A DNA stretch of 46,331 nt. It comes from a virus (Duplodnaviria; Heunggongvirae; Uroviricota; Caudoviricetes). The DNA lies in the IMG/VR virus record IMGVR_UViG_2877948078_000002; one strand, 5' to 3'. The position numbers were made by a program, and so were the translations under genes. Under the pieces are notes generated by a model. That model was not told the origin of the DNA. It searched no databases and saw only the letters and a program-made list of their open reading frames with translations. Numbering within the stretch: position 1 is the stretch's first letter; each line of letters starts with the position of its first letter. Positions 4,416 through 38,369 of this stretch are shown here, piece after piece.

Positions 4416-4600
4416 TGTGCACATCCTTTTGGCATCAGACGTAAACGAGCCAGCATTGAAACAATGCATATTTTATTTAATAGCTCCCGTTCTTGTTTTC
4501 TCTTGTTAATGGCATCTTCAGTAAATACAGGGTTACTGATAGTGACACCAATTTCAAAACAACCTTCAGACGTATTAACGTTTGGTAATAACGTTTTCAT
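4412..4600 (-). CDS. dicB: Cell-division inhibitor DicB (MinC-activating)
   Basis: 62-aa product MKTLLPNVNTSEGCFEIGVTISNPVFTEDAINKRKQERELLNKICIVSMLARLRLMPKGCAQ matches DicB as recalled in sequence and length; lies just downstream of dicF. Confidence 0.85.
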   Translation of the reverse strand: MKTLLPNVNTSEGCFEIGVTISNPVFTEDAINKRKQERELLNKICIVSMLARLRLMPKGCAQ

Positions 4601-4769
4601 TATCGCGTCCTCAACAATGAATTTTGTGATGCAGTGCCTGGTGCCTCCAGGTGACGTTAACCAGTTAACAATTAACGTCGGATACAGAGAATCCACCCAT
4701 AACACTGTTTTTGGTTTTAACTGTTCCGCGTGCGCTTAGCCGCATTCACCGCATCACAAAATTCACTTT

Positions 4770-4827
4770 AAAAACGGCGGCAGAGCAGTCACGGAGTAAA
4801 ACTGATACCGCCAAACGTCACCAGAAA
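4770..4827 (-). ncRNA. dicF: DicF small RNA (ftsZ-targeting sRNA) with intrinsic terminator
   Basis: Reverse complement of 4775..4827 reads TTTCTGGTGACGTTTGGCGGTATCAGTTTTACTCCGTGACTGCTCTGCCGCC followed by a T-run, matching the recalled 53-nt DicF; sits between ydfA-side ORFs and dicB as in Qin. Confidence 0.8.
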
Positions 4828-5086
4828 ATTGATAACAGAGGGCGTTGCAGCGGGGTTGTCACTTAAGCGTATGGTCAACCTGACAACTCGGTGTCCTCAA
4901 CGGGGAAGGAATAACCCCGCCATACTTACCGCCGCGCCATTTTGCGGGTTGCCACAACCGGAAGCGCACGGTCGAATTAAATTTAACGACACCGTACAGT
5001 GAGACGAACTTCGCCGTGCGCTTTCGTGTTGTGTGCCTGCTTTTAACCACGTCAGGCGAGGTGGTATCCTTAAAATCACCACAGTT

Positions 5087-5662
5087 TTAAGGATTCATTA
5101 AGCAATGTCGCAACCACCAATAAATCCGCTTAAGAACATGAAAATTGATTACTGGTATAAAGCGCTTACAGTTGTTGGCGCTGCGTTGTTTGTCTTTAAT
5201 GGAACGTCTTTTTTTGACAGATATCCCGTTGTTCCATTGGGTTTTTTGTCCTCCGGCATCTTTTTTATTGGTTTGGGGGAGTGGATTAATCACCCTCTCA
5301 AAGTGAGATTTATTGATCCTGGAGTTTGGACTCGTGGATATAATCGTTCTTCGTGCGCACTCAGTATCATCTTCGACATACTTGGTTGTTTCCTGATTGT
5401 TACAGGAGTCGTCAAGTTCTTCTGATGTAAAACCGCAAATGGGGCACGTAACGGGAATTTTGAAAAGCGTTTCTCCGGGTTCCAGAACAAAATTTTCTGC
5501 GGTCTGATTTTGCTTCTCATATTTGTGCTCCGCGTCATTGTGAGAGCACATTCTTATTCTGAGTGCCTGTTTAAACTCACTGAAGCTGAGAGCTTCTTCG
5601 CCTTCGGCAAGGCCTTCGAAGTATTCTTCGTAAGCCTTTTCCATGATTGTGTCGAAATCCAT
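5087..5662 (-). CDS. Hypothetical early protein (191 aa from MDFDT…), acidic N-terminus with CxxC motif; possibly corresponds to ydfB/ydfC of K-12 in a longer open frame
   Basis: ATG at 5660-5662 (minus) lies 2 nt after the ydfA stop (TGAtATG) with a GGTGAG Shine-Dalgarno-like sequence; C-terminal half is K/R/N-rich and is exactly antisense to a plus-strand membrane-protein ORF, so the true extent is uncertain. Confidence 0.4.
   Translation of the reverse strand: MDFDTIMEKAYEEYFEGLAEGEEALSFSEFKQALRIRMCSHNDAEHKYEKQNQTAENFVLEPGETLFKIPVTCPICGFTSEELDDSCNNQETTKYVEDDTECARRTIISTSPNSRINKSHFERVINPLPQTNKKDAGGQKTQWNNGISVKKRRSIKDKQRSANNCKRFIPVINFHVLKRIYWWLRHCLMNP
5105..5425 (+). CDS. Putative small inner-membrane protein (SieB-like superinfection-exclusion candidate), antisense to the early-left operon
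   Basis: 106-aa ORF with AAGGA Shine-Dalgarno 10 nt upstream of the ATG; three hydrophobic segments (ALTVVGAALFVF; GFLSSGIFFIGLG; ALSIIFDILGCFLIVTGVV); opposite orientation to the surrounding genes, as sieB is in Rac (recalled). Confidence 0.3.
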   Translation: MSQPPINPLKNMKIDYWYKALTVVGAALFVFNGTSFFDRYPVVPLGFLSSGIFFIGLGEWINHPLKVRFIDPGVWTRGYNRSSCALSIIFDILGCFLIVTGVVKFF

Positions 5663-5663
5663 A

Positions 5664-5819
5664 TCACTCACCTGAGTTTCTTTCCAGCCAGCGACGGGCA
5701 CCATTTTCGGTTTTAAACGTTTTGCTTTTGGTATACGTCATCGCGGTGAACGTGCCGTCCTGGTTGGGGAACACGCCACATACCAGAGATTCGCTGTTGC
5801 CAAGATCGATAGTATCCAT
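5664..5819 (-). CDS. ydfA: YdfA-like small protein (51 aa)
   Basis: Internal ATG at 5817-5819 gives 51 aa MDTIDLGNSESLVCGVFPNQDGTFTAMTYTKSKTFKTENGARRWLERNSGE; first gene downstream of dicA on the same strand, as in Qin. Confidence 0.7.
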   Translation of the reverse strand: MDTIDLGNSESLVCGVFPNQDGTFTAMTYTKSKTFKTENGARRWLERNSGE

Positions 5820-5987: not shown

Positions 5988-6395
5988 TTATTTTATTGAT
6001 TTATTTTTACGCGCTTTAAGCATTTCTTCGAAGAGTTTGTTGAAGTTTTCTACTCTTGCGCGCATTTCAGACAGCAAGGCTTCCTGCTCGGAAGATGGAA
6101 GAGCATCGAATAATTCGATCAATTCTTTGTGGTTGGGAGTTAGCTCTGTTTCCACATGAAGTTCTTGTGCCGGCACTGGTGCCTTGTCTTCGTCACCAAA
6201 CATTAGCCATGTAGGTGAGCACTTCAGAGCATCCGCTAAAGCAAACAATCGTTTTCCGACTGGCTGGGTTTCGTCTCTTTCCCATTGTGAAATTGTGACG
6301 TGAGCAACCCCAGCGAGGCGCGCAGCTTCTCGTTGTGTTAAGCGTAATTCTTTTCGTCGCGCCAGAACTCGCTGGCCTAGGGTTCTTGTATCCAT
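5988..6395 (-). CDS. dicA: Prophage repressor DicA (XRE-family HTH, C2/cI-like)
   Basis: 135-aa product MDTRTLGQRVLARRKELRLTQREAARLAGVAHVTISQWERDETQP… with HTH motif; closely resembles DicA as recalled; divergent from a cro-like gene. Confidence 0.9.
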   Translation of the reverse strand: MDTRTLGQRVLARRKELRLTQREAARLAGVAHVTISQWERDETQPVGKRLFALADALKCSPTWLMFGDEDKAPVPAQELHVETELTPNHKELIELFDALPSSEQEALLSEMRARVENFNKLFEEMLKARKNKSIK

Positions 6396-6462: not shown

Positions 6463-6475
6463 ATAGGAGGCTTTG

Positions 6476-6703
6476 ATGCTTAAAGCTGACGCAATTACTT
6501 TTTTTGGCAGCAAAACAAAGCTTGCCAATGCCGCAGGAGTGAGACTGGCAAGTGTTGCTGCTTGGGGGATACTGGTTCCTGAAGGTCGCGCGATGCGTCT
6601 ACAGGAGGCATCTGGCGGGGAGCTTCAGTATGATCCCAAAGTTTATGACGAATATCGTAAGACGAAGCGGGCGGGGCGATTGAACAATGAAAATCACTCC
6701 TGA
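6476..6703 (+). CDS. dicC: Cro-like regulator DicC
   Basis: About 75-aa product MLKADAITFFGSKTKLANAAGVRLASVAAWG…EGRAMRLQEASGGELQYDPKVYDEY…; AGGAGG Shine-Dalgarno 5 nt upstream of the ATG; divergent from dicA. Confidence 0.85.
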   Translation: MLKADAITFFGSKTKLANAAGVRLASVAAWGILVPEGRAMRLQEASGGELQYDPKVYDEYRKTKRAGRLNNENHS

Positions 6704-34365: not shown

Positions 34366-34910
34366 AAACGGGGGCTGAAGCCATCCGGGCGCTGGCCACA
34401 CAGCTTCCGTCGTTTCGCCAGAAACTGAATGAGGGCTGGTATCAGGTGCGCATTTCCGGGCGTGATGCAGGCGAAAATGAATTATCTGCCCGTCTTAATG
34501 AACCGCTGGCAAATGGTGCCGTGATCCACGTCGTTCCGCGTCTGGCGGGTGCCAAAAGTGGCGGTGTGTTTCAGGCGGTGCTGGGTGCGGCGCTGATTGC
34601 GGTGGCATGGTGGAACCCTGTTGGCTGGCTGGGGGCCGCGGCTGTATCGGGTATGTATGCAGCAGGGGCCAGTATGATCCTGGGTGGTGTGGCGCAGATG
34701 CTGGCACCGAAAGCCAGGACGCCCACGGCAGCCAGTACAGATAACGGCAAACAGAACACGTATTTCTCGTCACTGGATAACATGGTTGCCCAGGGCAATG
34801 TTCTGCCTGTTCTGTACGGGGAAATGCGCGTGGGATCACGTGTGGTTTCTCAGGAGATCAGCACGGCAGACGAAGGGGATGGTGGTCAGGTTGTGGTGAT
34901 TGGTCGCTGA
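34302..34910 (+). CDS. Tail assembly protein (lambda gpI-like)
   Basis: About 200-aa product overlapping the end of K; hydrophobic Gly/Ala-rich central segment; start codon choice uncertain (34263 or 34302). Confidence 0.75.
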   Translation: MARICLYGDLQRFGRRIDLRVKTGAEAIRALATQLPSFRQKLNEGWYQVRISGRDAGENELSARLNEPLANGAVIHVVPRLAGAKSGGVFQAVLGAALIAVAWWNPVGWLGAAAVSGMYAAGASMILGGVAQMLAPKARTPTAASTDNGKQNTYFSSLDNMVAQGNVLPVLYGEMRVGSRVVSQEISTADEGDGGQVVVIGR

Positions 34911-34928
34911 TGCAAAACATTTTATGTG

Positions 34929-34951
34929 AAACCGCCTGCGGGCGGTTTTGT
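34929..34951 (+). terminator. Hairpin with T-run between I and J (possible attenuator/terminator)
   Basis: AAACCGCC-TGCG-GGCGGTTTTG. Confidence 0.35.
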
Positions 34952-34967
34952 CGTTTATGGAGCGTGA

Positions 34968-38369
<3,402 letters not shown>

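Follow-up and report, generated by a model that had tools for sequence, protein, structure and literature searches.

The 46,331 nucleotide stretch of DNA analysed here (IMG/VR record IMGVR_UViG_2877948078_000002, referred to throughout as the window) is a dicB/Qin-type lambdoid prophage of Escherichia coli, and beside its immunity region it carries two open reading frames (ORFs) on opposite strands, here called X and Y. They probably constitute a nested sense-antisense gene pair, in which X is a lysogen-side accessory ('moron') gene lying within the early gene Y, the tail of which is kept open across it. The existence of long overlapping genes in antisense is contested for bacteria and phages: for most candidates the only support is expression data, and annotation pipelines do not allow such genes. 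For X and Y it is shown, by comparison of sequences across divergent lineages, that X is a real gene, that the N-terminal part of Y is protein-coding and that the stop-free state of the Y tail has been selected. The parts of the pair, in window positions, are as follows.

5105..5425, plus strand: gene X, for a small membrane protein of 106 residues (ORF list, 58 homologues, substitution pattern, AlphaFold 2 (AF2) model)
5087..5662, minus strand: gene Y, a 191-residue early-operon ORF enclosing X in antisense (ORF list, PHROG 35040, the Prokaryotic Genome Annotation Pipeline (PGAP))
5087..5425, minus strand: the Y tail, exactly antisense to X, stop-free and unconstrained in sequence
5426..5562, minus strand: the Y-specific non-overlapping segment (synonymous codon turnover, CxxC kept)
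5563..5662, minus strand: the YdfB-derived first ~33 codons of Y, common to K-12 Qin (K-12 homology at 5562-5750, phrog_2061 matching residues 1-34)
5089..5093, plus strand: Shine-Dalgarno-like AAGGA of X, overlapping the Y stop (TAA on the minus strand, 5087-5089) (sequence, alignment A2)
5027..5075, plus strand: conserved non-coding element, candidate X promoter (conservation across lineages, reuse in E. coli DL21)

The first-pass annotation had described a minus-strand frame open for 191 codons from the ATG at 5660-5662 with a 106-residue plus-strand ORF at 5105..5425 antisense to it, and both the ORF list and the sequence bear this out, X lying entirely within Y on the opposite strand. The product of Y begins MDFDTIMEK and its ATG sits 1 nucleotide after the stop codon (TGA, 5664-5666) of the preceding gene, ydfA, so that the 191-residue form would be translationally coupled to ydfA in the manner of K-12 ydfB; an alternative in-frame start at 5704 would give 205 residues (5087..5704), but overlaps ydfA. 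The codon boundaries of X and Y are identical, with the first position of each X codon facing the third of a Y codon, the second positions coinciding and the third X position facing the first of Y, and a Y stop can therefore arise only opposite a TTA, CTA or TCA codon of X. The window X has 10 leucine and 7 serine codons and not one of these three. The Shine-Dalgarno sequence, earlier called good, is present as AAGGA, but at 11 nucleotides ahead of the X ATG its spacing is acceptable rather than ideal. At this site TTTAAGGA/TTTAAAGA is conserved in alignment A2, and in the aligned window-type lineages the stop of Y falls within the conserved TTTAAGGA that is also the X Shine-Dalgarno sequence. 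The end of Y lies 5-12 codons past the start of X in nearly all lineages.

X is almost certainly a real gene. A protein search recovered 58 clusters of 100-110 residues, 35-98% identical over 90-100% of the length, from Escherichia, Yersinia, Herminiimonas, Reinekea and many metagenomes; the family, which is unnamed, spans the Proteobacteria and is marked by the motifs DYWYK and GLGEWINHP, and its invariant columns (W17, Y18, K19, G56, G58, E59, W60, N62, H63 and P64) are all present in the window protein. When 50,697 phage records were searched with X by tblastn the only matches were in HannyBb, mEp390 and Bcep176 (five records), the mEp390 X being 38% identical to that of the window and the Bcep176 match being gp33, which is annotated in the X frame. 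The substitution pattern, proposed at first pass as a means of seeing which frame is conserved at the amino-acid level, is clear for the overlap: between the window X and an 82%-identical relative (L123) nucleotide differences are biased to the third position (12/8/35 at X codon positions 1/2/3) and there are 19 amino-acid differences in X vs 43 in Y. Among 83 near-identical loci the 17 variable X sites split 4/4/9 by codon position, with no insertions or deletions. The three hydrophobic segments noticed originally are modelled by AF2 (predicted local distance difference test score, pLDDT, 86.9) as helices at residues 17-32, 42-62 and 85-105, with a hairpin (strands 65-71 and 74-79) after the GLGEWINHP motif. 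No family match to X was found in Pfam, PHROGs, NCBIfam or PADLOC, and Foldseek searches of the model against BFVD (viral) and the PDB gave no match with E < 0.05. Distant homologues are co-directional with their neighbouring genes in non-phage contexts, and in the non-embedded ones the complementary frame is interrupted by 1-17 stops, except for three GC-rich cases. The best reading of X is as an accessory gene for a three-helix inner-membrane protein.

A number of individual copies of X may be recorded here. In a non-phage setting on the chromosome of Herminiimonas aquatilis (L125 5001-6179) the X homologue is followed by a same-strand DUF5677 protein, and other non-phage copies (L126-L128) lie within runs of small same-strand hypothetical genes. 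Three matches of equal identity and E-value occur at separate places in the chromosome of Arcobacter sp. Pygsuia-1 (L019, L020 and L021), which suggests that this homologue rides a repeated mobile element. In Shigella flexneri SFBU0723 (L032 3929-4282) the upstream element is present and X is disrupted, its ORF ending after MSQPPINPLRT and the segment being ~114 nucleotides shorter, and this looks like a decayed copy.

The central observation concerns the frame complementary to X. X sequences were clustered at 70% identity, yielding 15 lineages, and expected stops were calculated from local codon usage. Thirteen of the 15 lineages, all from temperate-phage early operons and all with X intact, have no stop in that frame, against 1.7-4.8 expected in each and ~43 in total, and the remaining two have 6 and 3, as expected. 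Summed over the 13 stop-free lineages log10 P is -21.6, a probability (~1e-21) that overstates the significance, since the lineages share ancestry; if only a quarter of the codons are counted as independent, P still comes to ~1e-5. For the window by itself the probability of finding no antisense stop is ~0.06. Of the remaining two complementary frames, one has 1-7 and the other 5-17 stops in the enterobacterial and phage-borne X examined. The earlier supposition that only one of the two frames is real is not supported, as neither gains stops in the 13 divergent lineages. Stop codons in one frame in close relatives had been named as one observation that would tell against the pair; the phage clade keeps both frames open, with only rare alleles in which Y is stopped and X is intact.

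The non-overlapping part of Y is, by its pattern of codon replacement, under protein-level purifying selection. Its core (5426-5482, minus strand) encodes EPGETLFKIPVTCPICGFT, a hairpin plus CxxC knuckle, and window-type lineages keep the peptide I-P-x-x-C-P-[IV]-C-G-F despite changes of codon (ATT/ATC/ATA, CCC/CCA/CCG/CCT, TGC/TGT, GGT/GGA and TTT/TTC). In mEp390-type lineages the peptide is M[DN]YEFFERL..PGSVxIDxENSTVxLxGW, with PGSV...GW in the place of CxxC. Differences in the non-overlapping part of Y, by codon position, were 314/242/441, 126/115/267, 36/33/70 and 48/48/136 in four clades. A HMMER scan yielded 14 relatives of Y, and in full-length relatives, down to 27% identity, an invariant CxxC knuckle is followed at once by the complement of X. 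When metal ligands were sought in the N-terminal module, one CxxC was invariant in the zinc-knuckle clades and no second conserved pair was present; against PHROGs, Y gave a weak Lar-like match (E 0.38). Homology to YdfB is partial, covering residues 1-34 of the 42-residue protein, and PGAP flags it as 'missing C-terminus'. The suspicion that a hydrophilic frame opposite a hydrophobic ORF is an artefact is supported to the extent that, within the overlap, Y evolves as a by-product of X, but the idea that Y is an artefact and nothing more is not supported. Y is very probably a genuine translated early gene spanning X, as judged from these comparisons.

Some forms of Y depart from this arrangement. 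Proteins P0071-P0077 are frameshifted, switching after 'VTCP' into the frame of the minus-strand ORF at 5290-5538; the site of the shift is within or close to a run of G just beyond X (GGGG at 5441-5444 in the window) and may reflect sequencing errors or real alleles. In L131 (2692-3531), L133 (1020-1856) and proteins P0065, P0066 and P0068 there is no Y stop at the X ribosome-binding site, and Y reads through the conserved element in frame into the next gene (MQKREPVIIAPD...), giving ORFs of 245-271 residues; these relatives are window-like and apparently lack the dicF region.

Within the overlap the picture is different, in that selection on Y is, on this evidence, for openness of the frame only, and is not absolute, because the tail drifts, shows no bias to conservative change and is predicted to be disordered, and because truncated alleles occur. 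Y amino acids in the overlap change ~2x as fast as those of X. In a BLOSUM-based test of X-synonymous changes no bias to conservative Y replacements was detected (518 transversions were informative, 137 being better and 183 worse). The AF2 model of Y (154-residue core), built from an alignment of only 9 sequences, has pLDDT < 50 at residues 45-138 and a mean of 44 for the tail. Codon identity at conserved X residues in phage vs non-phage pairs was also considered, but is confounded by shared codon usage and was not used. An intact X was found in 154, and an intact Y in 150, of 156 window-type loci (a total in which some contigs, retrieved by both scans, are counted twice), and no locus was found with X broken and Y intact.

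The conserved element upstream of X (GTGTTGTGTGCCTGCTTTTAACCACGTCAGGCGAGGTGGTATCCTTAAAA, window 5027-5075) contains TGgTATCCT (5062-5070), resembling an extended -10 sequence, a weak -35 (TTTAAC, 5042-5047) and two mutually overlapping inverted repeats (GCCTG/CAGGC and ACCAC/GTGGT). It is near-invariant where X proteins share only 50-56% identity, and is better conserved than the X coding sequence, and it is taken here as the putative promoter of X. A copy of the element with 100% identity over window 5020-5071 stands ahead of a different plus-strand gene in E. coli DL21 (NZ_CP079747.1), the homology to the window stopping right after TATCCT. The DL21 gene (L007 1521-1804) encodes a soluble protein of 66 residues (WP_000159335.1, phrog_34441) and is convergent with a minus-strand gene for 121 residues, with no covering antisense ORF. 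Such an element might serve opposite-strand morons as a portable promoter, or might be an RNA element of one strand or the other. A terminator scan of the locus gave one weak terminator-like site only, inside Y.

The module occurs in two places, both adjoining the immunity region and with Y in an early operon each time. In the window, L116-L124, L130-L133, the Yersinia loci and L236 it lies left of the repressor in the early-left operon; in mEp390 and the checked L206-L235 loci it lies between cro and a CP76-type cII, with X co-directional with cI and Y filling the cro-cII gap. mEp390 gp39 (L004 2456-2911) is a Y-type ORF and X is unannotated there. The record likens gp39 to Bcep176 gp33, though gp33 is in the X frame: gp39 itself has no protein similarity to gp33 (E 0.53) and it is the unannotated complementary ORF that matches it (E 2e-17). 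The idea that gp39 is a wrong-strand annotation was rejected, since its N-terminal part is conserved coding sequence.

In the window the genes around the pair run, on the minus strand, exonuclease, ydfD, dicB (with a Pfam DicB match), DicF small RNA, Y, ydfA and a DicA/CI-like repressor, and on the plus strand beyond the repressor a cro-like gene and a YdaT gene. The nearest of these features are listed below.

5664..5819, minus strand: ydfA (DUF1391), first gene of the dicB-type early-left operon (Pfam PF07151, E 2e-27; PGAP on identical sequence)
4775..4826, minus strand: DicF small RNA, carried by the same early transcript as Y and downstream of it (Rfam RF00039, 72.5 bits, E 1.7e-15)
5988..6395, minus strand: DicA/CI-like repressor gene, convergent with X (ORF list; PGAP on near-identical loci)
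6473-6703, plus strand: cro-like gene (ORF list; PGAP on near-identical loci)

The dicBF transcript of K-12 begins ahead of ydfA and extends through ydfABC-dicF-dicB (PMC10448788), and so early transcription of the minus strand must cross the X/Y locus. The short ydfB and ydfC assigned at first pass to the corresponding place in K-12 are indeed found there. K-12 homology is limited to window 5562-5750: Y occupies the same operon position after ydfA and its first ~33 residues are those of YdfB, but leftwards of ~5562 the sequences are unrelated and the X/Y module stands in the place of ydfC. As K-12 homology starts only at ~5562, the interval ~5072-5562 is a replacement module, and it is present at full length in 793 of 5426 complete E. 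coli genomes. In two near-identical E. coli records PGAP has called a ydfB pseudogene or a 191-residue hypothetical protein (WP_000344958.1), and the plus-strand ORF is unannotated. An Rfam scan gave DicF alone above threshold; a sub-threshold STnc100 match (window 4568-4777, minus strand, 33.5 bits vs a gathering score of 47) overlaps the 5' end of dicB and the stretch just downstream of DicF.

An important consideration is what such an arrangement might do. X would be read from its own promoter-like element against the early-left (dicB-type) operon and, by analogy with sieB in lambda and P22, would most likely be made in the lysogen, where it may act in exclusion or abortive infection; this last role is put forward only as a possibility. 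Y would be made early, coupled to ydfA, with an N-terminal hairpin/CxxC module having a function of its own, and its translation would continue across the whole complement of X to end in the X ribosome-binding site. Ribosomes on the early transcript might thereby cover the ~320 nucleotide antisense insert and either avert Rho-dependent polarity or keep downstream coupling, the genes so protected being dicF, dicB and exo in the window and, in loci of the cro-cII class, cII and those for replication. Of the reasons for the open frame this anti-polarity rationale is the likeliest and the most economical, though itself rather doubtful, and an alternative reason could be that the N-terminal module needs a long hydrophilic tail.

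Resemblances to known systems are of several kinds. Lambda sieB (34482-35036, plus strand) lies between the minus-strand genes N and ral, and X is likewise an opposite-strand gene within the early-left operon near the immunity region; sieB of lambda, P22 and Rac is, as X is, a membrane-associated accessory gene antisense to an early transcript. The earlier comparison of X with SieB is therefore apt for a real membrane-protein gene in the lambda sieB layout, but not for homology, there being no match to Pfam SieB and no tblastn match to lambda or P22; X has 106 residues vs 184 codons in annotated lambda sieB. The complement of lambda sieB contains 9/4/15 stops with no gene overlapping it, in contrast to X, across which a stop-free early ORF extends. 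In P22 the antisense RNA sas modulates sieB translation, and the phage escapes its own SieB via the Esc polypeptide and antisense RNA of the same locus (PMC12197685). Loci on the opposite strand are typical accessory genes of prophages (PMC7067206). In the B3-like Pseudomonas phage Fc02 the antisense pair olg1/gene 10 lies beside the repressor, and both partners are translated and both exclude phages (PMC9936078). The lysogen-side gene of Fc02 is upstream of and co-directional with the repressor and antisense to the early gene after the cro/ner homologue, which is the architecture of mEp390-type X/Y (cI - cro - Y/X - cII). There is no detectable homology between the two pairs, the tblastn search with X having matched only five phage records, the insoluble Fc02 partner is the early-strand one, unlike that of X/Y, and the evidence for Fc02 is experimental where that for X/Y is comparative. 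The antisense overlapping genes of E. coli O157:H7 (for example ano, and three genes of PMC9927249; bioRxiv 10.1101/2020.11.18.388249), which are reported to rest on RNA-seq and ribosome profiling, resemble X/Y in having a long ORF on the complement of another gene; in X/Y, by contrast, conservation across many divergent lineages extends to both partners, and of the two it is the embedded gene that is older and better conserved. A literature search found no description of the X/Y module.

Besides the shared ancestry of the lineages, several observations weigh against a nested pair with a tail kept open for a purpose. Haplotypes L109, L135 and L138 have a premature Y stop with X intact and L124 carries a TGA within the CPVCG motif of Y, and from these rare truncations the tail must be dispensable at least in the short term. 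A strict sigma-70 scan of the locus gave no promoter, and the promoter call for X rests on conservation. A general anti-polarity requirement is weakened by the DL21 moron, which has no covering ORF, and is argued against by the X copies of Burkholderia-type phages, which are antisense-embedded yet carry 3-6 stops; moreover ~260 untranslated nucleotides lie between the end of Y and DicF. A stronger version of the proposal, in which X/Y is a conserved fully nested module and Y exists in order to be translated across X, either shielding the early transcript from Rho while antisense transcription silences X, or yielding a hydropathy-complementary neutraliser of X on induction, is unlikely.

Three other explanations have to be weighed against the nested pair. 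X might be the sole gene and the minus-strand ORF a truncated ydfB fused by recombination to a shadow frame, with an insignificant product. This would account for the PGAP call of a ydfB pseudogene in some genomes, the K-12 homology junction inside ydfB, the Y-truncating alleles, the modest window-alone probability, and a Y overlap whose rate of change is close to that of neutral sequence and which is predicted to be disordered. It is nevertheless improbable, given the complete absence of stops from the 13 divergent lineages where non-embedded homologues of similar GC content have them, the conservation of the non-overlapping part of Y as protein with synonymous turnover in four clades, and the consistent placing of its start (coupled upstream) and its stop (in the X Shine-Dalgarno sequence). 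At the other extreme both proteins could be functional at full length, the hydrophilic tail of Y, mirroring X in hydropathy, serving for example to bind or neutralise X on induction as an Esc-like antidote to a SieB-like protein. All 106 codons are open in many lineages, Y always spans X exactly, and there are precedents in P22 Esc and its antisense RNA (PMC12197685) and in the two phage-excluding partners of Fc02; but the tail shows no amino-acid constraint beyond that imposed by X, its fold confidence is very low and truncated Y alleles persist, and this possibility too is quite improbable. The converse of the first explanation, that the minus-strand ORF is the sole gene and the hydrophobic plus-strand ORF an artefact, is barely credible. 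The minus ORF is indeed the longer and the only one held by phage annotators and PHROGs (phrog_35040, mEp390 gp39), but the comparative data already contradict such a view: X homologues exist in many bacteria with a complementary frame full of stops, X amino acids are ~2x more conserved than those of Y in the overlap, the X fold is confident and Bcep176 gp33 is in the X frame.

The comparative signal for the nested pair of X and Y is strong in both directions and comes from within the best-studied type of regulatory region. A nested pair in which both frames are maintained by selection is rare, and this one has so far been unannotated. The annotation gap is a systematic one, X being absent from the Pfam, PHROGs, NCBIfam and PADLOC libraries searched and, in the phage records and the two near-identical E. 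coli records inspected, the longer complementary ORF or a ydfB pseudogene being annotated instead. An uncharacterised membrane-protein family becomes a candidate prophage exclusion factor, and the 793 complete E. coli genomes provide a tractable system for asking why a frame stays open without amino-acid conservation. If the fully nested module were to prove correct, X/Y would be among the best comparatively supported antisense overlapping pairs in bacteria or phages, and there would be a functional reason for an open frame without sequence constraint.
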